Origin: Vicinamibacterales bacterium
GTDB taxonomy: Bacteria; Acidobacteriota; Vicinamibacteria; Vicinamibacterales; UBA2999
Length of the DNA: 64,000 nt
Direction: 5' to 3'
Assembly (NCBI GenBank): GCA_040081265.1
Contig: JBEBGV010000003.1
Coordinates: forward strand, 73,781 to 137,780
The stretch's first letter is position 1; every line of letters starts with the position of its first letter. The notes below the pieces were generated by a model. The model was not told the DNA's origin. It searched no databases and saw only the letters and a list, made by a program, of their open reading frames with translations. Made by a program: the position numbers and the translations under genes. Positions 8,066 through 64,000 of the stretch are shown here, piece after piece.

Positions 8066-8716
8066 TCAGGGCTTCATGTAGGTGAAGCCTCGCTCCTGCG
8101 CCAATGCCAATGCCAGCACGTGGGATGGCATCAGACGTACACCCGGGGCCAGGCCGCTGACCAGGTCTGCGCGGACCTCCGCCACAGGCGTCCGAAACGC
8201 GTTCGCCAGTTGTCCCGCCACCACGCCCAGGGCCACGTTGCACTGCCAGAAAATCGTGCCGCGTGCCTGCATCGCCTTGATGCCGATCTCGGGATCGTCG
8301 AGGAAGATATTGCGGGTTGCCGGCTGCATCGTCAGCGGGTCGATGATCCTGGAGCGTTCTCCCAGCTTGTACTGAGCCCAGAGCCGGTCTGACGCGTTCA
8401 TGGCAAACGCAGGCCCGGAGATGCCAACGGCGGTGTTGACGTTGGGGAACTCGAGCTTGAAAACGTCGCGGAAGGTGTCGAGGAGGTTCCGTCCAAAGCG
8501 CAGCGGGCGCGGATCAGCCGCCAGATCGTGACCGCCCAGGTCGTACAGCTGCTTGTGGGCGCCTTTCATCTGGTCGAGCCAGGCCATGTCGAACGGGGCC
8601 ACGACCGGCAGGGTTGACTGCCCAGCAGCGGCGGTGCCAGGCGAACCGAGGGCAGCCAGTCCCGTCAGCGACGCCATGACGGAGACGAAGGAGCGACGGC
8701 CAGGAATTCCAGACAT
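8066..8716 (-). CDS. Tat-signal hypothetical protein
   Basis: 216 aa. The N-terminus GRRSFVSVMASLTGLAALGSPGTAAAGQ resembles a Tat signal. No family recognised. Convergent with the IorB-like gene. Confidence 0.7.
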   Translation of the reverse strand: MSGIPGRRSFVSVMASLTGLAALGSPGTAAAGQSTLPVVAPFDMAWLDQMKGAHKQLYDLGGHDLAADPRPLRFGRNLLDTFRDVFKLEFPNVNTAVGISGPAFAMNASDRLWAQYKLGERSRIIDPLTMQPATRNIFLDDPEIGIKAMQARGTIFWQCNVALGVVAGQLANAFRTPVAEVRADLVSGLAPGVRLMPSHVLALALAQERGFTYMKP

Positions 8717-16696: not shown

Positions 16697-16889
16697 GCTT
16701 TACCGGAGGGGGTAAACTGAGACCGGGGCAGGATCTGGTACCTATTCTGCACAAAACGCAACACGGCCTGGCGGCCATGCACTTGGCGTAGAGTTGGGCT
16801 TTGCCGCCTACGGATATCTGGTCGAGACGATCCAAGAAATTGTCCCCACTTACGGGTTTCGGGGTTCGACTAGTGACGGCATAGACGCG

Positions 16890-20739: not shown

Positions 20740-22692
20740 CTAGCCCTCGAGATAGGTGTAGCCGTGGAGCCCGTCTTCGTAGAAGCGGAGCAGCTGGCCG
20801 GCACCCTCATAGTCCATCCTGCCGGCGTGCACCGCGGTTTCGACGTCGGTGCGCAGCTTGCCAAGAAGCGCTTCGGCGTCGAACTCGACGTAGTCGAGCA
20901 CCTCTCGCACCGTGTCGCCCTTGATCAGGGCGTCCAGTCGCGCGGCGCCGTTCTCGTCCATGCTGACGTGCACCGCGTGGGTATCGCCGAGGAGGTTGTG
21001 GAGGTCGCCGAGGATCTCCTGATAGGCCCCGATGAGAAACACGCCCAGGTAATACGGCTTGCCGTTGACGGTGTGCAGCGGGAGCGTGCGCTTCACGTCA
21101 CGCCGGTCGACGAAACGGTCGAGCTTTCCGTCGGAATCGCACGTGATGTCGCCGAGCACCGCATGATTGAGCGGCTTCTCGTTGAGGCGATGGATGGGCA
21201 TCACCGGAAAGAGCTGCTTGATGGCCCAGCTGTCGGGGATCGACTGAAACAGCGAAAAATTGCAGAAGTAGGTGTCGGACAGCTGCTCGTCCAGGTTCTG
21301 CAGGTCCTCCGGCACCTCGCCCATCGTCTGGGCAATCTTCTGGAGCTTCGTGCATGTTGCCCAGAACAGATTCTCGGCGAGCGACCGCTGCTCGAGCGGC
21401 AGGTAGCCACCGTTGAAGAGCGAGAGCGCCATGTCGAGCGCCTGTTGCGCGTCGTGGAAGGCCTCGAGGGCATTTCGGGCGGTGACGTTGTTGTACGTCT
21501 CGATCAGGTCCGCGACCGGCTGCTCCCAGTCCGGGTTGGCAGAGGTCGGAATCTTCTCGTCGCCAAAGCCCGAGACCCCGAGGACATTGAACACCAGCAG
21601 GCTGTGATAGGCGACGACCGCTCGTCCGCTCTCCGAGATGATCGTCGGGTGCGGCACGCTCGCTTCGTCGCACACACTCTGGATGTGGTAGACGACGTCG
21701 TTGGCGTATTCCTCGAGCGTGTAGTTCATGCTCGACTCGAAGTTTGTCTGCGAGCCGTCGTAGTCCACGCCGAGCCCGCCGCCCACATCCAGGTACTTCA
21801 GCCCCGCACCAAGCTTGGCCAGTTCGGTGTAGACGCGCGCGCCCTCGTTCAGGGCGCCCTTCACGATGCGGATGTTGGTGATCTGGCTGCCGAGGTGGAA
21901 GTGCAGGAGCTTGAGGCAGTCCTGCATGTTGCGGCTCTTCAGCTCCTCGAGGCCGCGCATGATTTCGGTGACCGTCAGGCCGAACTTCGACCGGAATCCG
22001 CCTGAGGACTGCCATCGCCCGCTGCCGCGTGACGCCAGCTTCACGCGCATGCCGATCTGGGGCCGGACGTTGTATTTTTCTGCGGCCTCCAGGATCAGAT
22101 TGAGTTCGGTGTACTTCTCGACGACCGGAATGATGTTGCGGCCCATCTTGTGGGCCAGCATCGCGGTTTCGATGAACTCGGCGTCCTTGAATCCGTTGCA
22201 GATAATCGGCGTTTCGTTGTCGGCCACCGCAATGACGGCGAGCAGTTCCGGTTTGGATCCCGCCTCGAGACCGAAGCCATATGGCCGGCCGAAGTTCAGC
22301 ACCTCTTCGACGACCTGCCGCTGCTGGTTCACCTTGATCGGATACACGCAGCTGTACCCGCCCTGGTACTGGTGCTGCGCGATCGCCGCCTGAAACGCGT
22401 TGTGGATGTCGCCGAGCCGATGTTTGACGATGTCGGTGAAACGGATGAGGACCGGAAGACTGATGCCGCGCAGTTGCAGACGGTCGACCAGTTCCTTCAG
22501 ATCGATGCCGCGCGACGGCTCCTTGGTCGGGTGCACGGCCACGTGGCCAGCCTGGTTGACCGAAAAGTAGCCGTTGCCCCAGCGCGGAACTTCGTACAGT
22601 TCGCTGGCGTCGTGGACACTCCAGGCCGACGTCGACGCGGTGCCGGAAGGCACCGCGGTTGCGCGTCCGTTGGTAGCAGTAGCGTTACTCAT
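20740..22692 (-). CDS. speA: Biosynthetic arginine decarboxylase
   Basis: Start probably at the ATG at complement 22690-22692 (MSNATATNG...). Contains YPIKVNQQRQVVEEV and the PLP-dependent Orn/DAP/Arg decarboxylase fold-III pattern. Length is typical of SpeA. Confidence 0.93.
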   Translation of the reverse strand: MSNATATNGRATAVPSGTASTSAWSVHDASELYEVPRWGNGYFSVNQAGHVAVHPTKEPSRGIDLKELVDRLQLRGISLPVLIRFTDIVKHRLGDIHNAFQAAIAQHQYQGGYSCVYPIKVNQQRQVVEEVLNFGRPYGFGLEAGSKPELLAVIAVADNETPIICNGFKDAEFIETAMLAHKMGRNIIPVVEKYTELNLILEAAEKYNVRPQIGMRVKLASRGSGRWQSSGGFRSKFGLTVTEIMRGLEELKSRNMQDCLKLLHFHLGSQITNIRIVKGALNEGARVYTELAKLGAGLKYLDVGGGLGVDYDGSQTNFESSMNYTLEEYANDVVYHIQSVCDEASVPHPTIISESGRAVVAYHSLLVFNVLGVSGFGDEKIPTSANPDWEQPVADLIETYNNVTARNALEAFHDAQQALDMALSLFNGGYLPLEQRSLAENLFWATCTKLQKIAQTMGEVPEDLQNLDEQLSDTYFCNFSLFQSIPDSWAIKQLFPVMPIHRLNEKPLNHAVLGDITCDSDGKLDRFVDRRDVKRTLPLHTVNGKPYYLGVFLIGAYQEILGDLHNLLGDTHAVHVSMDENGAARLDALIKGDTVREVLDYVEFDAEALLGKLRTDVETAVHAGRMDYEGAGQLLRFYEDGLHGYTYLEG

Positions 22693-22826
22693 CGTCACGG
22701 TACAGCGTAAAGCCTGCGCGTCAAATGTCAACGACGAATCGTCACCGATTCACGTCGGTCTCCTGCACATCGCTGCCTCGAATTGGATTGAGCCGGTCGA
22801 GCGAGGTGGAGAAGAATGGGAACGTC

Positions 22827-23234
22827 ATGAGCGACCGCGTCCCGGCTATCAAGGTGCTGCTGCTGCCCAAGGACACCAACGCCTACGGGACGATCTTCGG
22901 CGGCGTGATTCTGTCGAACATCGACCTCGCGTCGGCGGTAGAGGCCCGCAAGGCCGGCCCGTGCCGCTACGTGACGAAGGCCATGCGGGAAGTGGAGTTT
23001 CACGACCCGGTCTTTGTGGGTGACGTCGTGAGCTTTTACACCGAGACGGTGCGCGTGGGCCGCACTTCCGTGACGGTCAAGGTGTCGGTGATCGCCGAGC
23101 GGTGGGGCGTCAACGGCCGCTCGACGCCGGGACGGGGTGAGCACGTCATGGTGACCGAGGCCGAGGTCGTGCTGGTGGCGGTCGACGACAAGGGCCGTCC
23201 GACTCCGATTCGTCCCGAGCCGGCGCAGGCCTGA
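22827..23234 (+). CDS. Acyl-CoA thioesterase, hotdog fold
   Basis: Start at the ATG at 22827 (MSDRVPAIKVLLLPKDTNAYGTIFGGVILSNIDLA...), an Acot/YciA-like signature. Confidence 0.85.
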   Translation: MSDRVPAIKVLLLPKDTNAYGTIFGGVILSNIDLASAVEARKAGPCRYVTKAMREVEFHDPVFVGDVVSFYTETVRVGRTSVTVKVSVIAERWGVNGRSTPGRGEHVMVTEAEVVLVAVDDKGRPTPIRPEPAQA

Positions 23235-52713: not shown

Positions 52714-53139
52714 ATGCGAGGTTGTCCTTCCTTCACGGCGCTGTGCGGTGTGGCCATGCTGGCCCTCGTTGGCGGCGGGTTTTCAGCTGCAGCCGCGTCG
52801 CCGCAGACGCCACCCGCGCGCTCGGTTCGAGAGGGCGTCTACACCGCGGCGCAGGCCGAGCGTGGTGAAAGAATCTTCATGAACATCTGCAGCGAATGCC
52901 ACAGCGGGCGCTTATGGGGGCTGGACTGGGAGACAAAGACGCTGGCCGATGTCTACGACTTCATCAGCCGCTTCATGCCCGAATCTGCTCCGGGGTCATT
53001 GAGCGCGCCGCAGGTGCGCGATGCGATGGCGTACATCCTGTCCACGAACGAGCTTCCGGCTGGCTCGTCCGAGATTCCTGTCAGCGTCGACGAGCTGAAG
53101 CAGATCAGGATTGAACCGGCTCCGACTACTCGACGATGA
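52714..53139 (+). CDS. Exported mono-haem c-type cytochrome
   Basis: 141 aa, a signal peptide, and a single CSECH (CXXCH) motif. Confidence 0.8.
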   Translation: MRGCPSFTALCGVAMLALVGGGFSAAAASPQTPPARSVREGVYTAAQAERGERIFMNICSECHSGRLWGLDWETKTLADVYDFISRFMPESAPGSLSAPQVRDAMAYILSTNELPAGSSEIPVSVDELKQIRIEPAPTTRR

Positions 53140-56100
53140 GCTGGATGCTGCCGTTGGCGGCGTCGTTGTCCGACATGTCGAACGAGTTCGTGCTGCTGCG
53201 CACCCACACGCCGATGCGGTACTGCGATCCTGCAGCCGACGGCGTCCACGTATAGCTCGAGGACGTCGACCACCCGGTCAGCATCTGCCAGGACCGTCCG
53301 TCGAACAGCCACCACTTGTACTGAAGCTGCGGCACGCCGCCGGTGACGGTCGTCGTCACGGTGACCGGGCTTCCCGAGGCGATTGGTGACGAGGCACTCG
53401 GAGTCAGCGCCAGCAGCCGCAGCGGACTCGTCGGCGAGTACGTGATCGTGTAGGTGCGCGCCACCGACGAAGAGGAGTTTTCAGGCGCGTCCGTCGTGGA
53501 CCCGGTGCTGCGGGCCCAGACCTCCACCTGATAGGCGGAACCCGATGCCGCCGGCGCCCAGAGAAACGAGCTCGAGGCGCTCCAGTTCTGAGCGACACTC
53601 CACGACGAACCGTTGTAGACGCGCCACTTGTAGCTGATGGGCCCCGCTCCGCCCGTCGTCGTGGCGGTGAAGCGGATGGCCGTGCCGAGCAGTTGCGGTG
53701 AGGCCTTGTCCGACGACAGGTTGGTCACCGCCAGGGGCGAGGCCTGACCTTTGATGACGAAATTGAGTTCGCTACTGGTATCGCCGCTGCTCATCCCTTG
53801 GAGAGAGTTCCCGGCGGGCCGAACCCAAACGGAGATGCGAACTCTATCGCTGGCTCGGGACGGCCTCCATACAAAAGTGGACGCGTCCGACCAAGGCGTC
53901 ACAATAGCCCAGGTGACTCCATCAAAGACCTTCCACCGAAATTTGTAGGCACGATCTCCTCCGGTTACCAGCGCTTTGAACGTCACGGCGGTCCCGATGG
54001 CCTGTGGGCTCGACTTGTCTGTAGTCAAAGTTGCACTAATGGGGGGAGCCTTGGACCCCGCGCTCCGGGCGCGCTGTGAACTTCGTGCCGGTGATACTAC
54101 GCCAGTGTTTAGGATGAGGAGAGCGATGCTCCCGTTCGAGTCGTCGTTCTCTGACGCGTTGGTCGTTGAGCCCGCGCTGCGCACCCAGACACCGATGCGG
54201 TAGTTGCCGGCCCGGCCCGGCGTCCACGTGAGCGTGGTCTGTGTGGACCAGTCCTTCTCGACCACCCACGACTGACCGTCGAAGATCCACCACTTGAACT
54301 GATGCGGAGCGGCGCCGCCGGCAGCCGCAGCGGTGAACGTGATGGTCGTCTGTGCGGCTTGCGGTGCCGCCTTGTCAGCGGTGAGTGTCGTCAGCGACAG
54401 CCGGCCTGTCGCCACGGTGTTGATCGCGTAGGAACGGGTCGCCGCCGACCCGGCGTTTTCGGCCGCGTCTACGGTGTTGCCGGCGCTGCGCGCCCAGACC
54501 TGCACCTGATAGTTGGCGCTGGCCGCCGTCGGCGTCCACATGAAGGTCGCTGCCGCGTTCCACGTCTGCGCGGTCGTCCAGGTCGAGCCGTCGAACACTC
54601 GCCACTGGAACTCATACGGCGCTGCGCCGCCATTGGCTGCCGCGGTGAATCGAATCGCCGTCGAGACCAGCTGCGGTGACGCCTTGTCGCTGGTCAGTGA
54701 CGTCACTGCGAGCGGCTGCGCACCCTGGGTGACGGGGAAGGCCACGCTGCTGTTGGAGTTGTCGTTGTCCGACGTATCTGCCGTGCGACCGGCGCTTCGC
54801 ACCCAGACTCCGACGCGATAGGCGCTGCTGGCTGAACCCGGCGTCCAGGTGAAAGTGTTGGCGGACGACCACTGCTGCACGATCGACCAGCCGTTGCCGT
54901 CGAAGAGCCACCACTTGTAGCTATAGGGTCCAGAGCCTCCGGTCGCGGCGGCTGTGAACGTGATCGCGGTGCCGGCGGCCTGGGGAGCGGTCTTATTGGC
55001 CGTCAGGCCGGTCAGCTGGAGCGGCGGAGGCACCATGGTGACCGCCAGCGTCACGCTCGACGAGTGTCCGGTGGTGTCCTGCGCCGTGATGGTCAGGACG
55101 TTCAGGCCGTCCTGAACAGCAATGCCGGCGGCGGTCCAGCTCGTCGTGCCCGAGGCTGTGCCGCTCCCGCCGCGGCTGTTGCTCCACTGAACGCGACTCA
55201 CCGTGCCATCGTCAGACGCCGAGCCGCTCAGCGCGATCGTGCTGGCGTTGGTGGTGTAGGACGGCGACGAGGTTGGCGAGCTGATCGTCACCGTCGGCGC
55301 CAGGTCAACCCCCACGGTCAGGGTGGTCGCCGTCGATTTGCCCGAGGCGTCGGCCGCCGTGAGCGTGACGAGGTTTGAGCCCGCCTCGAGCGGAACGATG
55401 ACCGACCAGTTCAACGTACCGGCCGCGCTCCCGCTGCCGCCACGGTTGTTGCTCCACGTGACGGAGGTGACGCCGAGGTCGTCGGTGGCCGTGCCGCTCA
55501 GCGTGACGAACGCGCTCGACGTGGCATGCGTTGAGGTAGAGGTCGGGCTGGTGATCGCGATGGCTGGCGGCTCGGTGTCCGCGGCGACGATCGTCCAGGT
55601 GAAGTACTGCGAAGCCGTATTGCCGGAGGCGTCGGACGCCGTCACGGCAACGTTGAACACGCCGGCCGAGGATGGTGTGCCCGAGATGACGCCGGTGGCG
55701 GTGTTCAGCAACAGCCCGATCGGCAGGCCGGAGGTATTGAAGGTCACGCCGTCCCCGTCCGGATCCGACGCCAGCAGGGTCAGGGACAGAGGAGTGTCGC
55801 GCTGATCGCTTCGATTGCCAGGGTTGCTCAGGGAGGGCCCGCCACCGGTCGTGGCGACAAGCTCTGGAGCGTTCTGTCCGATGATGGGGCCCGCGACGTA
55901 CGCCGCGACCGTCAGGTAGTAGGTCGTCCCGGGAACGGCCGACGTGAAGGTATAGGTCGTGGCGTTCCCCACGTCGACGATCGTCGAGTAGACGCCGGAC
56001 GCCGTCCCGATGAAGACGTAGTACCCGATGACATCTGATTCTGGATTGGCATCCCAGGCCAGGGTCAGTGAGTCTGCGCGTGCGGCGGTGGGCGCCAGAA

Positions 56101-56161
56101 GCGCCACCAGGAACGCGAGTGCGAGCAAGGCCCGCTGGGATTTGAGTTTCGTGTACTGCAT
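53126..56161 (-). CDS. Large secreted multi-domain protein: Fn3, cadherin-like (dystroglycan-type Ig), 2 Ig-like modules, 6 uncharacterised ~100-aa repeats
   Basis: 1011 aa. Signal peptide (residues 1-29), Fn3-like (30-109), ASDPDGDGVTF...TGVISGTP cadherin-like (110-194), two TSPTS...LSG.A.DD..V..V.WSN.RGGSG Ig-like modules (195-377), and six repeats (378-1011). Confidence 0.9.
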   Translation of the reverse strand: MQYTKLKSQRALLALAFLVALLAPTAARADSLTLAWDANPESDVIGYYVFIGTASGVYSTIVDVGNATTYTFTSAVPGTTYYLTVAAYVAGPIIGQNAPELVATTGGGPSLSNPGNRSDQRDTPLSLTLLASDPDGDGVTFNTSGLPIGLLLNTATGVISGTPSSAGVFNVAVTASDASGNTASQYFTWTIVAADTEPPAIAITSPTSTSTHATSSAFVTLSGTATDDLGVTSVTWSNNRGGSGSAAGTLNWSVIVPLEAGSNLVTLTAADASGKSTATTLTVGVDLAPTVTISSPTSSPSYTTNASTIALSGSASDDGTVSRVQWSNSRGGSGTASGTTSWTAAGIAVQDGLNVLTITAQDTTGHSSSVTLAVTMVPPPLQLTGLTANKTAPQAAGTAITFTAAATGGSGPYSYKWWLFDGNGWSIVQQWSSANTFTWTPGSASSAYRVGVWVRSAGRTADTSDNDNSNSSVAFPVTQGAQPLAVTSLTSDKASPQLVSTAIRFTAAANGGAAPYEFQWRVFDGSTWTTAQTWNAAATFMWTPTAASANYQVQVWARSAGNTVDAAENAGSAATRSYAINTVATGRLSLTTLTADKAAPQAAQTTITFTAAAAGGAAPHQFKWWIFDGQSWVVEKDWSTQTTLTWTPGRAGNYRIGVWVRSAGSTTNASENDDSNGSIALLILNTGVVSPARSSQRARSAGSKAPPISATLTTDKSSPQAIGTAVTFKALVTGGDRAYKFRWKVFDGVTWAIVTPWSDASTFVWRPSRASDRVRISVWVRPAGNSLQGMSSGDTSSELNFVIKGQASPLAVTNLSSDKASPQLLGTAIRFTATTTGGAGPISYKWRVYNGSSWSVAQNWSASSSFLWAPAASGSAYQVEVWARSTGSTTDAPENSSSSVARTYTITYSPTSPLRLLALTPSASSPIASGSPVTVTTTVTGGVPQLQYKWWLFDGRSWQMLTGWSTSSSYTWTPSAAGSQYRIGVWVRSSTNSFDMSDNDAANGSIQLIVE
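53129..55030 (-). repeat. Six tandem coding repeats (~99-119 aa each) of an uncharacterised beta-sandwich-like unit
   Basis: The consensus by eye is L..LT.DK..PQ...T.I.FTA...GG..P..(Y/F)KW(W/R).FDG..W.....W.....F.WTP....Y.(I/V).VW.RS.G. The hand-counted repeat borders at residues 378, 483, 587, 706, 809 and 913 sum exactly to 1011 aa. Confidence 0.85.
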
Positions 56162-56204
56162 CCTGACCTTTGCCGTATCGGTCGATCCGGTCTGCTACCT
56201 GTTG

Positions 56205-56220
56205 TGCAAGCAGATCTCCA
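56205..56220 (-). promoter_or_regulatory. Sigma-54 (-24/-12) promoter of the 1011-aa gene
   Basis: The minus strand reads TGGAGATCTGCTTGCA, which is TGG-N9-TTGCA with exact GG-N10-GC spacing. The -12 element lies 44-48 nt upstream of the ATG (56161). Confidence 0.6.
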
Positions 56221-56325
56221 CGGACTGAGGCGTTTGGTCGTTGTGACGAGGTGTGCAGCAACGTGCAGAATTGGGTGTCTTGTCTGGCTCAACCGTGACA
56301 ACCATGTGCCGTTCTGTGAGGGGGG

Positions 56326-56348
56326 CGCCGGCCCCGTCTGGGCCGGCG
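56326..56348 (-). terminator. GC-rich hairpin downstream of the 262-aa gene (terminator candidate without a U-tract)
   Basis: A 9-bp stem, CGCCGGCCC (56326-56334) pairing with GGGCCGGCG (56340-56348), with a 5-nt loop. It lies between the stop at 56425 and the next sigma-54 promoter. Confidence 0.4.
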
Positions 56349-56424
56349 ATCACGATCTCGGTAGGTCGATTGCAACCCTGTCAGGTTGCTGGCGGCGGGG
56401 GGAGGCCGCGCAGGCGGGATGAGT

Positions 56425-57213
56425 TCAGGGACGAGCGAATCGTCGCCGCTGCGTCGGCCGTGCCGGGACCCGGGCGGGTGGGAGCCCGAAGGTCACCTTC
56501 AGCTTGACGACGGTGAGGTTGGCGGACGCGTCGAGCGCAGTCACAGTCAGGACGTTCGCACCGGTCTGCAGCGGAATCACCACCGACCAGGTCGTTGTGC
56601 CCGCGACGTCGCCCGAGCCGCCCCGGTCGCTCGTCCAGGTCACGCTCTCAAGTGCCACATCGTCGGTCGCCCAGCCGCTCAGGGTGACGAAGGCTCCAGT
56701 GCTCGCGTACGCAGCGCTCGTCGTCGGGCTGGTCAGCATGAGCGTGGGTGCGGTGCGGTCCGCGGGGGCAGCGTGCCCCCGTGATGGTGCCAACGCCATC
56801 GAAACCATGACCGGAGGTGCGTCGCTGCGAGGGATGGTGGTGTCGGCGGTCCCGCCGGTGCCATTGGTGCTTCCTGGATTTCCACCGGGTGGAGCGGCCA
56901 CTGAAGCGACCAGCTCCGGAGCCTGAGTGCCGACGACGGGGCCAGGCGCATACGCAGCCACGGTGAGGAAGTAGGTTGCGCCCGGCGTCGCGCCGGTGAT
57001 GGTGTAGCTCGTTGCGTTGCCGACGTCAATGACGGAGGAGTAGCTGCCTGACTCGCTCCCGATGAAGACGTAGTAGCCCGAGACCTCCGCCTCGGGATTG
57101 GCATCCCACGCCAGCGTCAGAGTGTCGGCACTGCTGGACCAGGGCACAAGCAGCGCGAGAACGACGCAGGCGGCAAGGGCCGACAGACGAAACGACGAGC
57201 AGTGGTTCGGCAT
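56425..57213 (-). CDS. Secreted Fn3 + Ig-like protein, short paralogue of the 1011-aa protein
   Basis: 262 aa. In my hand alignment of the Fn3 region, 53 of 80 residues are identical to the large protein (ADTLTLAWDANPEAEVSGYYVFIG... versus ADSLTLAWDANPESDVIGYYVFIG...). One Ig-like module follows (TSPTTSAAYASTGAFVTLSGWATDDVALESVTWTSDRGGSG). Confidence 0.85.
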   Translation of the reverse strand: MPNHCSSFRLSALAACVVLALLVPWSSSADTLTLAWDANPEAEVSGYYVFIGSESGSYSSVIDVGNATSYTITGATPGATYFLTVAAYAPGPVVGTQAPELVASVAAPPGGNPGSTNGTGGTADTTIPRSDAPPVMVSMALAPSRGHAAPADRTAPTLMLTSPTTSAAYASTGAFVTLSGWATDDVALESVTWTSDRGGSGDVAGTTTWSVVIPLQTGANVLTVTALDASANLTVVKLKVTFGLPPARVPARPTQRRRFARP

Positions 57214-57252
57214 GGTGAGGGTCAGGGTGATCGCGTCCTGCCAGCCCGATTT

Positions 57253-57268
57253 TGCAAGCAGATCTCCA
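57253..57268 (-). promoter_or_regulatory. Sigma-54 (-24/-12) promoter of the 262-aa gene
   Basis: The same TGGAGATCTGCTTGCA on the minus strand. The 19 nt at 57253-57271 are identical to 56205-56223. The -12 element lies 40-44 nt upstream of the ATG (57213). Confidence 0.6.
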
Positions 57269-57368
57269 CGGTGCTGGCCGCTTCGGGGACTGCGCAGCGG
57301 CGTGCTGAAGTGTTCAGGGCCCCCAAACCAGGCGCCTATTGTGCGAGAGTAGAGTGGCCTCTCACCTC

Positions 57369-58013
57369 ATGGGACTCAACCTGGTACTGCTCGGCCCACC
57401 AGGGGCCGGAAAGGGCACACAGGCCGTGCGACTCGCGCGCACGTGGGGGATTCCGCACATCTCCACGGGCACGATGCTGCGCGAAGCGGTCAAGTCGGAC
57501 TCTGAGCTCGGCCGCCAGGTGAAGGCCATCATCGAGTCAGGTGGCCTCATCGACGACACGCTGATCACCGAAGTGGTCCGCCAGCGTCTCGCGTTGTCCG
57601 ACACCGCTCCGGGCTTTCTTCTCGACGGATTTCCGCGGACGGTGCCTCAGGCCGAGGCGCTCGACTGCTTCAGTGGCCTGAAAGGCTCCCTGGTCATCGT
57701 CGAGATCGTGCTGTCGGAGCGGGAAGTCCTGCGGCGTCTGGCGGCGCGCATGATCTGCTCGGAGTGCGGCGTCAACGCGCAGGACGATGAGGAATTTGCC
57801 ACCTGTCACGACTGCGGCGGAGCGCTTGTGCTGAGGGCTGACGACGCCGAGGCGGTGGTCAGGAACCGGCTCGAGGTGTACCACCGGCAGACCGTGCCCC
57901 TGGTCGAGTATTACGGCGCCAGGCCCACGTTTGTTCGCGTCGATGGCGCACAGCTGGTCGACCATGTGACCGAGGCGATTCTGGCCTCGGTATCGGCCGC
58001 CCGCGCCCGATAA
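57369..58013 (+). CDS. adk: Adenylate kinase (Zn-lid type)
   Basis: Start at the ATG at 57369 (MGLNLVLLGPPGAGKGTQA...). LLDGFPRT, and a four-Cys lid (CSECG...CHDCGG). Confidence 0.95.
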   Translation: MGLNLVLLGPPGAGKGTQAVRLARTWGIPHISTGTMLREAVKSDSELGRQVKAIIESGGLIDDTLITEVVRQRLALSDTAPGFLLDGFPRTVPQAEALDCFSGLKGSLVIVEIVLSEREVLRRLAARMICSECGVNAQDDEEFATCHDCGGALVLRADDAEAVVRNRLEVYHRQTVPLVEYYGARPTFVRVDGAQLVDHVTEAILASVSAARAR

Positions 58014-58068
58014 TCGCCCGTCTGCCGACAGTGGCAGGCCGGGCCGGTTGTGGATTACCCTGCCGTGC

Positions 58069-59562
58069 ATGGACACGTCTCTCGCGCAGTTCAAGTCGCT
58101 CTTTGGTGAAGTCGCCGACCTCCGCCGCGCCGCCGAGCTCATCGAATGGGACGAGCGCGTGTGCATGCCGCGCGGAGGCGCATCGATTCACGGAGAAATG
58201 CAGGCGACGCTCCGCCGTCTGGCGCACGAGAAGTTCACCCGCGACGAGATGGGCAGGTCCATCGAAGCGCTCGTACACGGCTCTGAGCCCGGCTCAGACG
58301 TCGGTCGGCTGGCCGCCGTCGCCGCACACGATTACGAGAAGGCGACGCGCGTGCCCGCGGCCTTTGTGTCCGAGCATGCGCACACGGTGTCCGCGTCCCA
58401 GCATGCCTGGGAGCAGGCCCGTGCGGGGAACGATTTCGCGTCGTTTGCACCCCACCTCGAGAGAGTGCTCGACCTCAAGCGAAAGTACGTGACGTTCTTC
58501 CCACCGGCGGAGCATCCCTACGATGTGCTGCTCGACGATTGCGAGCCGGGGATGAAGACCTCCGAGGTCAAGACGCTCTTCGGCACGCTTCGCCCACGTC
58601 AGGTCGCGCTCATCAAGAAGGTTGCTGCCTGCCCGCCCGTCGATGACAGTGTGCTGATGGGCGCGTACGCCGAGTCCGACATGCTCGGCTTCGCAGTGGA
58701 GGTGGCTGGCGGCTTCGGCTTCGACTGGGCGCGCGGTCGTCAGGACAAGTCAGTCCATCCCTTTGCGTCAGGCATCGGCTCAGACGATGTCCGGATCACG
58801 ACGCGGTGGGTCGAGCGGTTGCCGTTCAGCATGCTGTTCGGCACGATGCACGAGACCGGCCACGCCTTGTATGAGCAGGGCGTGAGCAAGGCGCACCACC
58901 GCACGCCACTCGAAGGCGGAACCTCGCTGGGCGTGCACGAGTCGCAAAGCCGACTGTGGGAGAACGTCATCGGTCGGTCGCGTGGCTTCTGGCAGCACGT
59001 CTTTCCGTCGTTGCAGGGCAGGTTCCCGGCGCAGCTGCGCGGCGTCTCGGTGGATCAGTTCTACCGCGCCGTCAACAAGGTGCAGCCGTCGCTCATTCGC
59101 GTTGAGGCCGATGAAGCGACCTACAACCTCCACATCATGCTTCGCGTCGAGCTGGAAATTGCGCTCATCGAGGGGAAGGTTGCGGTCGACGCGCTGCCGG
59201 AACTCTGGCGTACGCGGATGCAGGAGTACCTCGGCGTCGTCCCACCGACCGACGCGCTCGGCGTGCTGCAGGACGTGCACTGGTCGGCCGGACTCTTTGG
59301 CTACTTCTCGACCTACACCCTCGGCAACGTGATCGCGGCGCAGCTCTGGGAGCGGTTTGGCGTGCTCAATCCCGACCGCGACGCCCAGGTCGCGCGTGGG
59401 GAGTTCACACCGTTGCTCTCGTGGCTCCGCAGCGAACTGCACCAGCACGGTCGTGCGTATCAGGCCCAGGAACTGGTCGAGCGCATCACGACCAGGCGTA
59501 TCGATCCCGCCCCCTATCTGCAGTACCTCGAAGGCAAGTACGGCGAGCTCTACGGTTTATAG
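58069..59562 (+). CDS. Carboxypeptidase Taq-type (peptidase M32)
   Basis: Start at the ATG at 58069 (MDTSLAQFKSLFGEVADL...). HETGHALYEQG zinc motif, HESQSR and DVHWS.GLFGYF.TYTLGN. Confidence 0.92.
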   Translation: MDTSLAQFKSLFGEVADLRRAAELIEWDERVCMPRGGASIHGEMQATLRRLAHEKFTRDEMGRSIEALVHGSEPGSDVGRLAAVAAHDYEKATRVPAAFVSEHAHTVSASQHAWEQARAGNDFASFAPHLERVLDLKRKYVTFFPPAEHPYDVLLDDCEPGMKTSEVKTLFGTLRPRQVALIKKVAACPPVDDSVLMGAYAESDMLGFAVEVAGGFGFDWARGRQDKSVHPFASGIGSDDVRITTRWVERLPFSMLFGTMHETGHALYEQGVSKAHHRTPLEGGTSLGVHESQSRLWENVIGRSRGFWQHVFPSLQGRFPAQLRGVSVDQFYRAVNKVQPSLIRVEADEATYNLHIMLRVELEIALIEGKVAVDALPELWRTRMQEYLGVVPPTDALGVLQDVHWSAGLFGYFSTYTLGNVIAAQLWERFGVLNPDRDAQVARGEFTPLLSWLRSELHQHGRAYQAQELVERITTRRIDPAPYLQYLEGKYGELYGL

Positions 59563-59660
59563 ACGATCTCTCCCGATTCAAGTCCCAGGTCCACCTGGCC
59601 GATCACGAGTGGAGCGCCGGGGAAGGAGTGTCCCCGTGTGCCTCATGGCGGGTGTCCACG

Positions 59661-60788
59661 ATGCATCTGGTAGACCAGGAAAGGTCAGCGGCGGGTTTTA
59701 CAGCTCCCGTGCTGGTTGGAGAGAGTCAGGCGCTGCAGCGCGTTCGTCTGCTGGCCGAGCGTGTGGCCGGCGGCGAAGCGAAGGTCCTGATCACAGGGGA
59801 AAGCGGCGTCGGCAAGGACGTCATCGCGCGCTACGTCCATGCCAAGTCGAAGCGTGCGCACCAGCGGTACGTTGCGCTGAACTGCGCGAGCTTCTCGGAG
59901 ACGCTGCTCGAATCGGAGCTGTTCGGCCACGTGAAGGGCAGTTTCACGGGCGCCTATCGCGACAAGATCGGCAAGCTTCAGCAGGCCCACCGGGGAACGA
60001 TCTTCCTCGACGAGATTGCCGAGATGAGCCTTCGCATGCAGGCGATGCTCCTGCGGTTTCTCGAGAACGGCGAGATCCTGCCAGTCGGCGCCGACACGAT
60101 GCCGATTCGCGTTGACGTCCGGGTGATCTCGGCGACCAACCGCGATCTGCAGGACATGGTGGCCAAGGGCGAGTTCCGCGAAGACCTGCTCTTCCGCATC
60201 CGCGTGGCACACATCCATGTGCCGGCGCTGCGCGAGCGCAAGGAAGACGTGCGCGCGCTGATCAACTACACGCTGACGCGTGGCGGCCACACGATTCAGA
60301 TCAACGACGAAGCGATGGACATGCTCGAGCGTTACCGGTGGCCCGGCAACGTCCGCGAGCTCCAGAACGTCGTCGAGCAGACCGTGGCGATGACCCTGGG
60401 CGACGAGGCGGGCGTGGCGGAGCTGCCGCCCTCGATCCTCGCCCGGCAGGCAGGCGCGATCTCGCCGGTCCTCGATCGCCGTCGCCGGATGTCAGACGAC
60501 CTGTACGACGGTCTGATTTCGGGCGGCTATCAGTTCTGGACACATGTCCACCCGATGTTCATGAACCGCGACATCACGCGGGCCGACCTGCGTCAGCTGG
60601 TCCGGCGCGGGCTGGCGGCCACCGGCGGCAATTATCGGGGCGTGCTGCAGCTGTTCGGGATGGAAGACGGGGACTACAAGCGCTTCCTCAACTTCCTTGG
60701 GACGCACGATTGCGCCATCGACTTCCGTGAGTTCCGTGGCGCGAAGCGACAGCTCGCCGAGGCGGCCAGCGCACGCTCGAGGTCGTGA
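59661..60788 (+). CDS. Sigma-54-dependent transcriptional activator (bEBP) lacking an N-terminal sensor/receiver domain
   Basis: About 375 aa from the ATG at 59661. VLVGESQALQRV begins only about 17 aa in. Contains ITGESGVGKD (Walker A), ESELFGHVKGSFTGA (GAFTGA-type loop), GTIFLDEIAEM (Walker B), RVISATNRDL and EDLLFRIRV..I.VPALRERKEDV, plus a C-terminal HTH-like RADLRQLVRRGLAATGGNYRGVLQLFGM. Confidence 0.9.
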   Translation: MHLVDQERSAAGFTAPVLVGESQALQRVRLLAERVAGGEAKVLITGESGVGKDVIARYVHAKSKRAHQRYVALNCASFSETLLESELFGHVKGSFTGAYRDKIGKLQQAHRGTIFLDEIAEMSLRMQAMLLRFLENGEILPVGADTMPIRVDVRVISATNRDLQDMVAKGEFREDLLFRIRVAHIHVPALRERKEDVRALINYTLTRGGHTIQINDEAMDMLERYRWPGNVRELQNVVEQTVAMTLGDEAGVAELPPSILARQAGAISPVLDRRRRMSDDLYDGLISGGYQFWTHVHPMFMNRDITRADLRQLVRRGLAATGGNYRGVLQLFGMEDGDYKRFLNFLGTHDCAIDFREFRGAKRQLAEAASARSRS

Positions 60789-60958
60789 TTCCGAGACGGT
60801 GAGCGTGGCGTGAAAATCCGCGAATACCCAGAGTTTGATCGTCGCGGCGCCAGACCCTGTGTGCAGGAACGTCAAAGGCTTTGTCGATGTCGTTCCCGAA
60901 CTCAGCGCGTTCGGGCATGTTTCACACAAATGTGCCCGTAAGCCCCGGCCCGCTCCGG

Positions 60959-60974
60959 CGGCACCGCCGTTGCT
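60959..60974 (+). promoter_or_regulatory. Near-consensus sigma-54 (-24/-12) promoter upstream of the PilZ gene
   Basis: CGGCAC-CGCCG-TTGCT. GG is at 60960-60961 and GC at 60972-60973 (GG-N10-GC). It lies about 50 nt upstream of the ATG at 61024. Confidence 0.6.
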
Positions 60975-61023
60975 CTGCCTTGGTGAGGCCGGACCGGGAA
61001 GGTTCGCCCGGTCGGGAGCAAAG

Positions 61024-61635
61024 ATGGCGGAGCGGAGAAGGAGTGAACGGTTCTCTTTGGTGTACCCCGTGGATGCACAGGTCAGCGTCCTCCATGACGT
61101 CCACATCGAAGAGACCGGTCCAAACAATCTGGCGGTTCTGTGCACGACGCCCGGCGTTCGTGGAGAGGAAATGACTGTGCGCATCGGGCCGTCCGACGGC
61201 GTCCAGTCGACACTGGTCGGACGGACGGTCGGCAGCGAACCGCGCATGGTCGACGGACGTGTCATGCACCGGATCCAGCTCGCGGTGACGGGCGCGCCGA
61301 CCATGCCGAGGGTCGGGGCGGCGGGTTCTGGCCGCTCTACCGAACGTCACGCCGCGATGTTCGTGCGTCGCCACGCCGCCCGTGTCGTGAACCTGAGTCG
61401 CGGCGGGTGCCTGCTCGAACTCCCCAGCTGCATGCACGCCGGCACGGTCGCCACACTCTACGCCGGCAAGGACCTGGCCCATGCCGAGCCGATCCGTGTC
61501 GGTTTCGTTCACGAGCGTAAGGGATCGTCGTGGCCGTTTGTCGCCGGCGCCGAATTCCTCTCGCTCGACGCGCCGTCGTCGGATTCGTTGCGCTCGATGG
61601 CCGGTCGGATCGAGTTGGAGCATCGTCACTTCTAA
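61024..61635 (+). CDS. Two-domain PilZ-like protein (putative c-di-GMP receptor)
   Basis: Start at the ATG at 61024, preceded by GGGAG (MAERRRSERFSLVYPVDAQVSV...). The N-terminal half has RxxxR (RRSER) but a degenerate second motif. The C-terminal half has RSTER...NLSRGG, fitting RxxxR...(D/N)xSxxG. Confidence 0.65.
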   Translation: MAERRRSERFSLVYPVDAQVSVLHDVHIEETGPNNLAVLCTTPGVRGEEMTVRIGPSDGVQSTLVGRTVGSEPRMVDGRVMHRIQLAVTGAPTMPRVGAAGSGRSTERHAAMFVRRHAARVVNLSRGGCLLELPSCMHAGTVATLYAGKDLAHAEPIRVGFVHERKGSSWPFVAGAEFLSLDAPSSDSLRSMAGRIELEHRHF

Positions 61636-62735
61636 TGCGACTGATGGCGTGCGCCGTTGCGCTCGTGTGCGCCATGTCTCCAGCTGTGTCGGCACAGGTG
61701 CGGGCGGTCGCGACGCCGGAATCGCTCGTGCGGGATGGCGAAGCGGCGCTCAACGCCAAACGCTATCGCGACGCCTTTGACGCGTTCGCCGCCGCCGCGC
61801 ATGCCCGGCCACGAGACGTGTCGCTCTACGCGGCCGCCGGCTATGCCGCCGAACTGCTTGGCCAGATGGCTGACGCGCAGCAGTGGCTGGAGCGCGCGCT
61901 TCAGGTCGACCCTCGCTACACCACGGCCTCGACCATGCTCGGCCGCGTGCTGTACCAGCAGGGCAAGGTGACCGAGGCGGTCAGTGCACTCGAGACGGCC
62001 CTGCGCTACGCCCCGGCGAGCCAGGAGGTGATCCGGCAGCTCGAGCAATGGCGTAAAGAGGCCGAACTTCAGAGTCGCTTCTACGAGAGCCGCGGCGCCC
62101 ACTTCTCGGTGCTGTTCGAAGGACCGGCAGACGACGCGATTGCCAGGAAGGTCGTCGAGATCCTCGAGCAGGCCTATTACCGCATCGGCGGCGCGCTCAA
62201 TACCTATCCTGCCAGGACGATCACCGTGCTGCTCTACACGCAGCAGCAGTTTCAGGACGTGACGCGATCTCCGGGGTGGACCGGCGGAGTCTACGACGGA
62301 CGGATCAAGTTGCCGGTCGCGGGCGCACTCAATCGCGGCGCCGATCTGCAGCGCGTGGCCGAGCATGAGCTCGTGCACGCCGTGGTCTCGACCATGGCCG
62401 GGACGGCGGTGCCGACCTGGCTGCATGAGGGTCTGGCGATGACGCTGGAGGCGGGAGGCGGAGCATGGGCGGATGATGCGCTCGCACGCACGCCGGTGCG
62501 GGGATCGCTCGCGAGCCTCAGCAACGGCTTCGGCGCGCTCGACTCACAGCAGGCCACCCTGGCATATGCGCAGAGCGCGTTTGCCGTGAAGAAGATGGTG
62601 GCGATGCGCGGCATGCCAGCCGTGGTCGCGTTGATCCAGGACCTGGGCCGGGGCGCGACATTCGAGAGCGCGTTTGAACGAAGCATGTTCATGAGCTTCG
62701 AAGAATTCGGCGCGCTCGTCACGCGTCCACGGTAG
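61635..62735 (+). CDS. Secreted TPR-repeat + peptidase-MA-like (HExxH) protein
   Basis: The ATG at 61635 overlaps the PilZ stop (TAATG). Signal peptide MRLMACAVALVCAMSPAVSAQ. TPR-like units (AEL.G....A..WLERALQVDP). HELVHAV...PTWLHEGLA is a Peptidase_MA-type zinc motif. Confidence 0.8.
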   Translation: MRLMACAVALVCAMSPAVSAQVRAVATPESLVRDGEAALNAKRYRDAFDAFAAAAHARPRDVSLYAAAGYAAELLGQMADAQQWLERALQVDPRYTTASTMLGRVLYQQGKVTEAVSALETALRYAPASQEVIRQLEQWRKEAELQSRFYESRGAHFSVLFEGPADDAIARKVVEILEQAYYRIGGALNTYPARTITVLLYTQQQFQDVTRSPGWTGGVYDGRIKLPVAGALNRGADLQRVAEHELVHAVVSTMAGTAVPTWLHEGLAMTLEAGGGAWADDALARTPVRGSLASLSNGFGALDSQQATLAYAQSAFAVKKMVAMRGMPAVVALIQDLGRGATFESAFERSMFMSFEEFGALVTRPR

Positions 62736-63020
62736 AGCTGGCGCGCTTTCGCGTGCAGCTGCGCGCACCACCCACCTCGGGCATACGTTCCAAACTGTTA
62801 TCATCGACGTGCGGTTCAAAGACCTTTGGTCTGTCGTCGTTCTGGTGGCGCCGAGACAATAGTCTGGGTCTGCCGGGTTGAACCGCATCCGCGGGTGTGG
62901 ACCGCGTCGCTGGCCTGAAGGCGTTTTTGACGATAACGCTCAGCGATTTGCAAGGTTGAATGGAATCTAATCGAGCGTGGGGAGTGGGTACATCACTTGC
63001 CCCTTCCCGGCTCGAGGCAT

Positions 63021-64000
63021 ATGAGAAGTCACACTCCTGAACGTCCTTCGCGGCCTGGTCGACGGGTGCTCCTCGTCGGTGCTGCTGGCGTGCTCCTGAC
63101 CGTTGCGGTGCTCGCCGTTGGGCTGCGATTCTCGTCACCCTCACCGGCCGCGGATGCCTTTGATAATGCGGGCAGCGCACCCTCGTTTGGTGAGGCGCCG
63201 CTCAGTGATGCCCCGCTGATCGCCGAGCTGACCTCGGACAGCGCATCGAGTGGGCATCCCAACTACCGCCACTCAGTGGTCGCGGGCGGTGTCCACGATG
63301 TGGACGACGTCCAGCAGGCGGTGAGCACGGATCCAGTCGTCCGTGAGCACTACGCCAGGGTGTCGGTGGACAAGCTGAAGGTCGTCGCGGCGCCAGCGCG
63401 CCGGGATGCCTACATGTCGTATCGCATCGGCGATCGCGTGTACTGGACGTCGAAGAAGATTGCGCTCGCCGCGGGCGAAGCCGTGCTGACCGACGGGGTA
63501 ACCTCCATCCGCGCTCGCTGCGGCAACCTCATCTCGGATGAGGCGATGGGCCCCACCTCTGATCAGGAACCGCCGGCCTCTGCCTTCGACGCTGTGGAGC
63601 CGCGACGCAGTGCCCCGCTTCCTGTCGCCACGAGCGAAGACCTCACGGCGCTGGCCGGTGATCTGCTGGCCCGGTCTGGCGGCGGTGCTGCGAGCGTATT
63701 CCCCGGGCTTGCGCCAGGGACCTTCGACGGGATTGGACCAGGCAACAGTCAGGGTGTCGGTGGCTTCAGCTCCGGCAATATCGGTGGCTCGGCCGGGTCA
63801 ATTGGCGGGGGCTCAGGCCGTCGTTCGGGGCCGGGCGGCAGCAGTGACGGTGCGCTGACCGGTGAGACTCCTGAAGGCGGCAATCCCGGCGGTGATAATC
63901 CCGGCGAGGGCAACCCAGGCGGTCCTGGCGGGCCGGGCGGCCCCGGCGGCCCCGGTGGCCCAGGTGGTGGCGGCAACCCGGGGTTCGAGGAGCCGCACTT
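63021..64000 (+). CDS. N-terminally membrane-anchored hypothetical protein with a Gly/Pro-rich C-terminal region; 3' end beyond the window
   Basis: Not in the ORF track because there is no stop. My translation from the ATG at 63021 reads MRSHTPERPSRPGRRVLLVGAAGVLLTVAVLAVGLRFSSPS...YRIGDRVYWTSKKIALAAGEAVLTDG...GNPGGPGGPGGPGGPGGPGGGGNPGFEEPH. The frame is open through 64000. Confidence 0.7.
   Translation, partial: MRSHTPERPSRPGRRVLLVGAAGVLLTVAVLAVGLRFSSPSPAADAFDNAGSAPSFGEAPLSDAPLIAELTSDSASSGHPNYRHSVVAGGVHDVDDVQQAVSTDPVVREHYARVSVDKLKVVAAPARRDAYMSYRIGDRVYWTSKKIALAAGEAVLTDGVTSIRARCGNLISDEAMGPTSDQEPPASAFDAVEPRRSAPLPVATSEDLTALAGDLLARSGGGAASVFPGLAPGTFDGIGPGNSQGVGGFSSGNIGGSAGSIGGGSGRRSGPGGSSDGALTGETPEGGNPGGDNPGEGNPGGPGGPGGPGGPGGPGGGGNPGFEEPH

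Follow-up and report, generated by a model that had tools for sequence, protein, structure and literature searches.

The 64,000-nucleotide stretch of DNA considered here (the window) comes from an uncultured soil/water acidobacterium of the order Vicinamibacterales, and its 3′ end carries a compact group of genes headed by a short activator of sigma-54-dependent transcription (a bacterial enhancer-binding protein, bEBP). The activator gene is followed by a gene for a two-domain PilZ-like protein, a gene for a zinc metallopeptidase with tetratricopeptide repeats (TPR) and the 5′ part of a gene for a PEP-CTERM surface protein, and candidate sigma-54 promoters with upstream activating sequences (UAS) stand ahead of the PilZ-like and the PEP-CTERM genes (Table 1). 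Taken together, these elements suggest a sigma-54 surface-structure regulon in which the PilZ-like protein is the input partner of the activator, a sequence-based model to which a probability of about 0.45 can be given. Its core, namely the activator, its enhancer, at least two sigma-54 promoters and a set of named targets, is very likely to be correct.

Table 1. Genes and predicted regulatory elements of the module, with positions in the window.
Feature	Position	Strand	Basis or remark
Sensor-less sigma-54 activator (bEBP), 375 aa	59661..60788	+	Pfam PF00158, PF25601
UAS1, CCAGAG-N16-CCAGAC direct repeat	60828..60855	+	Candidate activator binding site, ~105-132 bp 5′ of P1
P1, predicted sigma-54 -24/-12 promoter CGGCAC-N5-TTGCT	60959..60974	+	Sequence CGGCACCGCCGTTGCT
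Two-domain YcgR/MrkH-type PilZ-like protein, 203 aa	61024..61635	+	Pfam PilZ, AlphaFold2, Foldseek
TPR + MA-clan zinc metallopeptidase, predicted secreted (HELVH...WLHEGLA)	61635..62735	+	Pfam
UAS2, CCAGA-N17-CCAGA, inverted	62841..62867	-	Candidate site, ~120-145 bp 5′ of P2
P2, predicted sigma-54 -24/-12 promoter GGGTAC-N5-TTGCC	62986..63001	+	20 nt 5′ of PEP-CTERM gene
Predicted PEP-CTERM surface-protein gene, 5′ part, ATG 63021	63021..64000	+	Orthologues; C-terminus beyond window
Sigma-54-like element GTGGAGATCTGCTTGCA	57253..57269	-	5′ of 262-aa fn3/Ig adhesin-like gene (56425-57213)
Sigma-54-like element GTGGAGATCTGCTTGCA, second copy	56205..56221	-	5′ of 1011-aa He_PIG/Ig adhesin-like gene (53126-56161)

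An activator reduced to AAA+ domain and tail

An earlier note on this DNA had described the activator as an AAA+ domain with a helix-turn-helix-like (HTH-like) tail and nothing else, and the first part of this description is confirmed. Specifically, Pfam assigns Sigma54_activat (PF00158, 220 bits) and AAA_lid_14 (PF25601, 71 bits), the AAA+ domain begins at residue 18 with no domain N-terminal to it, and the motifs GESGVGKD, GSFTGA and IFLDEIAEM can be read directly in the sequence. The earlier suggestion that a sensor cannot be gained by choosing an earlier start also holds: homologues have the MHLVDQ start in common, the 10-25 extra N-terminal residues of some gene calls are not conserved, and the open reading frame (ORF) of the upstream M32 carboxypeptidase ends at 59562, and therefore no sensor domain is recoverable. 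The activator belongs to a very large family of sensor-less proteins of 360-402 aa, in which more than 120 clusters are at least 64% identical to it over full length, some of them labelled Vicinamibacterales. GESGVGKD (Walker A), FLDEI and GSFTGA are invariant in 55 relatives.

The tail could be upheld in part. Pfam HTH_8 does not match it, and a sequence comparison of the tail with the PDB gave no significant match, but AlphaFold2 predicts five helices in residues 273-348 (predicted local distance difference test score, pLDDT, 84-92) and the NCBIfam models for NorR and NtrC align through residues ~334-345. The Foldseek alignments to ZraR and NtrX extend over 304-362 columns, against ~250 for chains consisting of an AAA+ domain only, and because they are 50-100 columns longer they probably reach the C-terminal regions of those proteins. 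The tail of the activator is thus plausibly a divergent, family-specific Fis-type DNA-binding domain. The structural matches at the top of the Foldseek list are FleQ, LuxO, ZraR and NtrX (E ~1e-19 to FleQ, LuxO and NtrC1), and the AAA+ domain itself is closest to FleQ, LuxO and DmpR, with 42-45% identity to that of FleQ.

Between loci, the activator is 87-90% identical (L001 and L002, with partial matches in L006-L011; L numbers denote the related loci), compared with 77-84% for adenylate kinase, 81-85% for the M32 carboxypeptidase and 45-62% for the PilZ-like protein in the same loci. The activator (59661-60788) is therefore better conserved than its housekeeping neighbours at 57369-59562, which encode adenylate kinase and the carboxypeptidase, and the 40 residues that precede its HTH (DDLYDGLISGGYQFWTHVHPMFMNRD) are almost invariant across the family. 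The short activators have also expanded by paralogy, with two copies within 3 kb in L018 (2507-7197) and two paralogues on single contigs in the cases of P0056/P0082 and P0114/P0119. Given these paralogues, one PilZ-like protein might serve several activators.

Promoters, upstream repeats and candidate targets

A near-consensus sigma-54 promoter ahead of the PilZ-like gene had been proposed from the sequence. By window statistics alone the evidence for P1 is weak, as the pattern GGCAC-N5-TTGC is found twice in the window where 0.67 matches are expected. The case is made by the relatives: P1 lies 50 nt upstream of the PilZ-like start codon, and all the PilZ-like homologues examined, which represent five gene arrangements, have a -24/-12 element 42-71 nt ahead of the gene (L001, L002, L004, L006, L009, L010, L011, L012, L014, L015, L017 and L018). 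P1 is well-supported as a sigma-54 promoter because this element is conserved upstream of all these homologues, even where the encoded protein is only 28-30% identical to that of the window, and the PilZ-like gene is a probable sigma-54 target.

P2 follows the same pattern. In most orthologous loci it reads GGGCAC-N5-TTGCC, with GGGCAT in L010 and GGGTAC in the window, and GGG.A......TTGCCC is invariant in the alignment of six loci. In the orthologues of the Gly/Pro-rich gene, the element precedes the gene by ~20-50 nt, and the paralogous PEP-CTERM genes in L019 and L021 are likewise preceded by -24/-12 elements.

Both promoters of the window have a conserved block containing CCAGA-N17-CCAGA ~105-145 bp upstream, in forward orientation at UAS1 and inverted at UAS2. 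The UAS1 block is conserved in an alignment of nine promoter regions, and the UAS2 block (GGTCTGG...GAGACTATTGTC) in six loci, with the same distance to P2 in L005 and L011, and in L017 the block takes the form of a palindrome (CCAGACATTCGTCTGG), situated ~120 bp ahead of the promoter. Where genes for DUF192 or PAP2 proteins intervene between the activator and PilZ-like genes (the type B and C loci described below), the block stays with the PilZ-like promoter and not with the activator gene. In the -60 to -200 regions of 28 promoters, 35 copies of CCAGA were counted where 8.9 are expected (3.9-fold), and four in control windows at -260 to -400, although these counts include orthologous, non-independent loci, so that the p-value is inflated. 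The CCAGA(C) repeats are likely to be the element recognised by the activator, and we infer from the sequence that it binds at UAS1 and UAS2.

As to the genes behind these promoters, the earlier note had listed a TPR protein with a zinc-peptidase motif, and Pfam agrees (Peptidase_MA_2 with 60.7 bits, together with several TPR families). The overlap of the PilZ-like stop codon with the peptidase start codon, also pointed out there, is read directly as TAATG at 61633-61637. The N-terminus of the peptidase resembles a signal peptide (MRLMACAVALVCAMSPAVSA). The fourth gene of the module had been described as coding for a Gly/Pro-rich protein anchored at its N-terminus; the gene is indeed present, with its ATG at 63021, but judging from the orthologues its defining feature is a C-terminal PEP-CTERM signal and not an N-terminal anchor. 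Orthologues and paralogues in L001, L006, L010, L019, L020 and L021 end in VPVPEP, a hydrophobic transmembrane helix and an Arg-rich tail, and the three orthologues and three paralogues all pass the cutoff of TIGR02595 (18.6-22.4 bits against 16). The window copy, which is cut at 64000, contains a signal/transmembrane segment, a YMSYRIGD...IRARCGN domain (unannotated, and common to the full-length orthologues) and a Gly/Pro-rich spacer; by orthology, it would encode a PEP-CTERM, that is, exosortase-sorted, protein. The paralogues in L019, L020 and L021 adjoin paralogous short activators.

Two adhesin-like genes further upstream, on the minus strand, probably belong to the regulon as well, so that the suspicion of the earlier note on this point is reasonable. 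They are preceded by an identical 17-mer (GTGGAGATCTGCTTGCA) with GG-N10-GC spacing, of which two exact copies are present in the window against 0.17 expected matches, and variants of it precede the orthologous adhesin genes in L001 and L002. The gene for the 1011-aa protein additionally has two CCAGAC motifs at -60 to -200.

Other promoter-like sequences were met in passing. A near-consensus -24/-12 match (AGGCACCGCGGTTGCG, 22648-22663, + strand) lies in the divergent region between the arginine decarboxylase gene and a thioesterase-like ORF (22725-23234), and another (TGGCACCGCCGCTGCT, 8624-8639, - strand) falls within an unannotated ORF (8066-8716), in its 5′ part; chance may explain both. 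In related loci with Tad pilus genes (L002, 9400-9760; L009, 1350-1970; L018, 1182-1197), the PilZ-like ORF has an apparent C-terminal extension of ~70 aa, within which a conserved TGGCAG-N5-TTGCT sigma-54 promoter sequence lies ~190 nt 5′ of the gene for the Flp pilin. Probably the extension is a conserved regulatory region that has been taken for coding sequence, and the Flp pilin in these loci appears to be sigma-54-dependent.

The PilZ-like protein and its genomic neighbourhood

The gene at 61024-61635 had been proposed to encode a two-domain PilZ-like protein, and its borderline Pfam score is backed by a predicted fold of the YcgR type. The AlphaFold2 model (pLDDT 81, predicted template modelling score 0.70) consists of two beta-barrels with a disordered linker and a C-terminal helix. 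The layout is as follows: an RRxxxR motif (R5-R9), the N-terminal barrel (10-89), a linker with R104xxxR108, the PilZ barrel (110-178) and the C-terminal helix (189-202). The top 16 Foldseek matches in the PDB are all YcgR-family receptors (probability 0.94-1.00, with E<=1e-3 for the top six), among them MotI/DgrA, PP4397, MrkH, PlzA, VCA0042 and YcgR, with whole-chain TM-scores of ~0.3, low values that are expected if the domain orientations differ. No NCBIfam model matches the protein and none of the PilZN-type families of Pfam matches its N-terminal domain, while Pfam PilZ is found in 40 of 73 diverse relatives (E<=0.01; best 1.7e-8). A word search returned 16 close relatives and a full scan with a hidden Markov model (HMM) 617 representatives, 169 of them at E<=1e-10, most being full length at ~200-245 aa.

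The 73 relatives define a family hallmark. R5 and G128 are invariant and R4, R9, C129 and R190 at least 90% conserved; at N123-L-S-R-G-G128 of the window protein, the family has G128 in 73/73, S125 in 63/73 and N, D or E at position 123 in 69/73 (E in 17/73). The hallmark is thus an N-terminal RRxxxR and a [N/D/E]xSxxGC in the C-terminal domain, ~113 residues apart, whereas the canonical RxxxR of PilZ proteins sits in the interdomain linker, ~20-30 residues before [D/N]xSxxG. Conserved Arg and SxxG residues of these types bind cyclic di-GMP (c-di-GMP) in PilZ domains. That the conserved residues of this family form a ligand site is their natural reading, and the odds are slightly in favour of the PilZ-like protein binding c-di-GMP, with a non-canonical geometry.

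Two other ideas about this protein were dropped. An origin of the two domains by internal duplication of a PilZ domain is not supported by the sequence (hhalign probability 1.3% between the N- and C-terminal domains), and a Tat signal reading of the N-terminal RRxxxRF does not hold, as the motif is not followed by a hydrophobic h-region and the AlphaFold2 model has beta strands at this place.

The gene contexts of eight PilZ-like and ten activator homologues were read, obtained through exact-protein look-ups and a scan with the activator tail; a scan of the genome collection with a PilZ-like pattern gave no relatives, and that of metagenomes two short loci only. Five arrangements were observed. 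In type A (the window, L001, L010 and L011, with L004 and L005 as fragments), the order is activator, PilZ-like gene, TPR-peptidase and PEP-CTERM gene. Type B (L002/L003, L009 and L014) has activator, in some cases DUF192, PilZ-like gene, flp pilin, prepilin peptidase, TadE, RcpC and secretin, and type C (L006-L008) has activator, DUF192, PAP2, PilZ-like gene and PEP-CTERM gene. In the fourth (L012) the PilZ-like gene is divergent from the activator gene, and in the fifth (L017) it precedes the activator (DUF192, PilZ-like, activator). L018, a further context, has three PilZ-like genes and two activators, with the peptidase and a tad locus. The gene order is conserved well beyond this strain, and the adjacency of activator and PilZ-like genes survives rearrangement.

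Among the loci found through the PilZ-like protein, a sample biased towards containing a PilZ-like gene, an activator gene is upstream in all ten with upstream sequence (8 distinct sequences). In the sample found through the activator, 5-6 of ten activator genes, from several activator clades, have a PilZ-like gene within ~1.5 kb. The genes 3′ of the PilZ-like gene vary (peptidase, flp/tad, EAL/HDOD or activator), and the activator and the sigma-54 promoter are therefore its only constant neighbours.

Some further features of these loci deserve mention. The window has no DUF192 (PF02643) gene, but in L002, L006-L009, L012, L017 and L018 such a gene adjoins the activator or PilZ-like gene and may be one more part of the cassette. 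In L015 (2574-13400, from a Vicinamibacterales metagenome-assembled genome), the activator/PilZ-like pair lies amid genes for c-di-GMP turnover and signalling, which code for a REC-PAS-GGDEF-EAL protein, two EAL/HDOD proteins and a CHASE8 histidine kinase; this setting counts in favour of the model. One ORF, P0240 (547 aa), has the PilZ-like domains, a hydrophobic segment and TPR-Peptidase_MA_2 in a single polypeptide. Either the overlapping genes are read through here because of a frameshift, or this is a true fusion protein that spans the membrane, and in the latter case it would resemble inside-out signalling of the Alg44 or LapD type.

The missing input and the place of the PilZ-like protein

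The module is not without precedent, because a PEP-CTERM gene with its own predicted sigma-54 promoter sets it beside the known PrsR/PrsK/PrsT regulon. In Proteobacteria, PEP-CTERM genes form single-gene operons behind an activator-site motif and a sigma-54 motif, and they occur together with the receiver-type activator PrsR, with PrsK and with PrsT, a TPR protein (Haft et al. 2006, PMC1569441). In Aquincola, the PEP-CTERM gene pepA was found by experiment to be RpoN-dependent, and so was prsT, which is needed for floc formation (PMC9850573). The module described here is an acidobacterial counterpart of this regulon, with a receiver-less activator. Like Prs, it has a single-gene PEP-CTERM unit behind a long intergenic region with a predicted -24/-12 promoter and a candidate upstream activator motif, as well as a dedicated sigma-54 activator, with a probable Fis-type tail, and a TPR protein encoded nearby. 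Unlike PrsR, the activator has no receiver domain (256 bits with TIGR02915, whose cutoff is 502.6), and a kinase resembling PrsK is not encoded nearby; unlike PrsT, the TPR part is joined to an MA-clan peptidase (TIGR02917, 33 against 312 bits). A PilZ-like gene in the cassette and the acidobacterial lineage complete the differences.

With an activator that has no receiver and no kinase nearby, the input is missing. No histidine kinase is encoded in the window, and an Rfam scan of 56000-64000 gave no credible match and no c-di-GMP riboswitch. The PilZ-like protein is proposed as the input because the activator has no input domain of its own and the PilZ-like protein is the first product of the nearest target promoter, and it is favoured as partner because the activator and the sigma-54 promoter are the only constant neighbours of its gene, a layout like that of PspF/PspA. 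There, the sensor-less activator is subject to feedback from the protein encoded first in the target operon. PspF/PspA, HrpRS/HrpV and FleQ/FleN are examples of sigma-54 activators that are sensor-less or controlled by a partner. The likeness lies in an activator made of AAA+ and (here probable) HTH domains only and in an adjacent sigma-54 target operon whose first gene encodes a small cytoplasmic protein, divergent in L012 as pspF and pspA are. Unlike PspA and FleN, the candidate partner is a PilZ beta-barrel and not a coiled coil or an ATPase, and unlike in Psp the proposed signal is a nucleotide second messenger and not membrane stress. The earlier inference that the PilZ protein, perhaps with the TPR-peptidase, controls the activator in trans and so couples c-di-GMP to sigma-54 transcription is supported in part, since the comparison of loci points to the PilZ-like gene as a sigma-54 target. 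A feedback of the PilZ-like protein on the activator of the PspA/PspF kind is a serious possibility, somewhat short of even odds; what speaks for a controller role is the persistent adjacency of the two genes and the PspF/PspA analogy, and only these.

In the proposed model, at least two -24/-12 promoters would be served by the PspF-like activator, bound through its DNA-binding tail to the CCAGA(C) repeats that lie ~105-145 bp ahead of them. P1 would transcribe the translationally coupled pair of a cytoplasmic PilZ-like protein and a secreted TPR-zinc-peptidase and P2 the exosortase-sorted Gly/Pro-rich PEP-CTERM protein, and the two fn3/Ig adhesin genes upstream would probably join the regulon; in sister genomes the same activator/PilZ cassette is located before Flp/Tad pilus genes instead. 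The PilZ-like protein would be the cognate input or feedback partner of the activator; bound to c-di-GMP, it might alter ATPase activity or oligomerisation of the activator, in the manner of PspA/PspF and FleN/FleQ, standing in for the PrsK-to-PrsR phosphorelay of Proteobacteria. A stricter version, in which the widespread acidobacterial PilZ family with split motifs is a dedicated, autoregulated input subunit that binds the receiver-less activator depending on c-di-GMP and so switches a PEP-CTERM/adhesin/Tad regulon, is less likely than not.

A number of observations weigh against the model. The Pfam PilZ score of the window protein (PF07238, 22.5 bits) equals the gathering cutoff and covers only residues 117-190. 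The linker RxxxR, which in the window lies 15 residues before N123, is not conserved in the family (R at the two positions in only 9/73 and 12/73 relatives), and no description was found of a layout with RRxxxR ~113 residues from SxxG. Four of 14 activator genes (L013, L019, L020 and L021) have no adjacent PilZ-like gene, and among the 150 best representatives no fusion of activator and PilZ-like protein was seen, the only fusion being P0240 with the peptidase. The agreement of close loci is partly inherited, because they share wider synteny (adk, M32, AddAB). Moreover, rpoN is absent from the 64-kb window and no exosortase was found among its scanned ORFs, and none of the public RNA sequencing runs checked contains the locus. 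The presence of rpoN in the genome is implied indirectly by the conserved -24/-12 promoters.

The PilZ-like protein may instead be a downstream effector only, which is made from P1, senses c-di-GMP and acts post-translationally at the envelope, the activator being controlled otherwise or by its abundance. Its target could be the co-translated TPR-peptidase (in a LapD/LapG-like manner), Tad pilus assembly or PEP-CTERM export. The translational coupling to the peptidase would suit such a role, and so would the pairing of the two genes in L001, L005, L010, L011 and L018, the single PilZ-TM-TPR-peptidase polypeptide of P0240 (TM, transmembrane segment), the loci in which the PilZ-like gene directly precedes flp/tad genes, and the mode of action of most YcgR-type proteins characterised (YcgR, MotI, FlgZ), whose targets are machines and not transcription. 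However, no machine partner is constant, as type B loci have no peptidase, type A loci no tad genes and L015 and L017 neither; of the two proteins only the peptidase carries a predicted signal peptide, so that direct contact with the PilZ-like protein would need an uncleaved anchor; and P0240 is one of 617 representatives, perhaps a frameshift read-through. On balance this explanation, though less likely than not, is the main competitor.

It seems improbable that the PilZ-like protein is a nucleic-acid-binding regulator of the MrkH/PlzA kind. Such a protein, together with c-di-GMP, would bind DNA near P1/P2 or at the promoter of its own gene, and would co-activate or repress in concert with the activator while making no contact with the AAA+ ring. 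MrkH and PlzA stand high in the list of structural matches, but MotI and PP4397 rank equally high in a comparison with TM-scores of ~0.3. The mrkH gene is autoregulated and adjoins the fimbrial operon that MrkH activates, and the PilZ-like gene likewise adjoins surface-structure genes and has conserved upstream elements. As far as we know, however, sigma-54 promoters strictly require an AAA+ activator, so that a MrkH-like protein could only modulate them. The family is mildly basic (median isoelectric point 8.8), but its range of 5.6-11.2 makes this character too inconsistent to be taken as a hint of DNA binding, and no DNA-binding motif was identified in the protein. Hardly more probable is a reading in which the PilZ-like protein no longer binds c-di-GMP and works as an adaptor without the nucleotide, or in which the activator, like FleQ, senses c-di-GMP itself. 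The borderline PilZ score, the absence of the linker RxxxR from most relatives and the E at the [D/N] position in 17/73 would agree with lost binding, but the invariance of R5 and G128 and the conservation of R4, R9 and C129 in 73 members are hard to explain without a ligand site. As for direct sensing, FleQ is among the closest solved relatives of the activator and contacts c-di-GMP through R144, R185, E330 and R334 (PMC10723142), but in the alignment only the two ATP-binding arginines are kept, with P16 in place of R144 and Y in place of E330, and FleQ-style binding by the activator was judged unlikely.

The PilZ-like protein resembles the YcgR family (YcgR, MotI/DgrA, FlgZ/PP4397, PlzD/VCA0042, PlzA, MrkH) in its predicted succession of N-terminal barrel, PilZ barrel and C-terminal helix, in the presence of [D/N]xSxxG and in a size of ~200-240 aa. 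It differs in its conserved RRxxxR, found at the extreme N-terminus before the N-terminal domain and not in the linker, and in its genomic partner, a sigma-54 activator and not flagellar or fimbrial genes. As with FleQ, FlrA, FlrC and VpsR, c-di-GMP is here proposed to be coupled to an enhancer-binding-protein scaffold for surface or motility genes; unlike in FleQ, the sensing would be left to a PilZ protein of its own. To our knowledge, c-di-GMP reaches sigma-54 transcription only via activators that bind it themselves (FleQ, FlrA, FlrC), and a full-text literature search found no description of a partner switch between a PilZ protein and an enhancer-binding protein. A separate PilZ subunit for a sensor-less activator, if true, would be a new wiring principle, the first switch of this kind, offering a second solution beside the PrsK/PrsR phosphorelay.

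Independently of the switch, the analysis provides a concrete candidate regulon (activator family, CCAGAC repeats and sigma-54 promoters) for an abundant and little-studied phylum, with promoters standing before PEP-CTERM proteins, adhesins and Flp pilins. It extends the link between PEP-CTERM proteins and sigma-54 beyond Proteobacteria. A further result is the definition of a PilZ subfamily, with ~600 representatives, whose motifs are arranged in an unusual way. The organisms that carry the module inhabit biofilms of drinking water and biofilters, settings in which attachment and the formation of flocs are important; drinking-water metagenome runs contain the full-length window sequence, and biofilter, aquaculture and aquatic runs contain parts of it. 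The first 52 kb of the window are housekeeping in nature (MetH, type III glutamine synthetase, SpeA, ThrC, AdoHcy hydrolase, Asd, a ClpA/B-like protein and AddAB), and within this part a DUF349 protein of 987 aa is encoded at 16794-19757.

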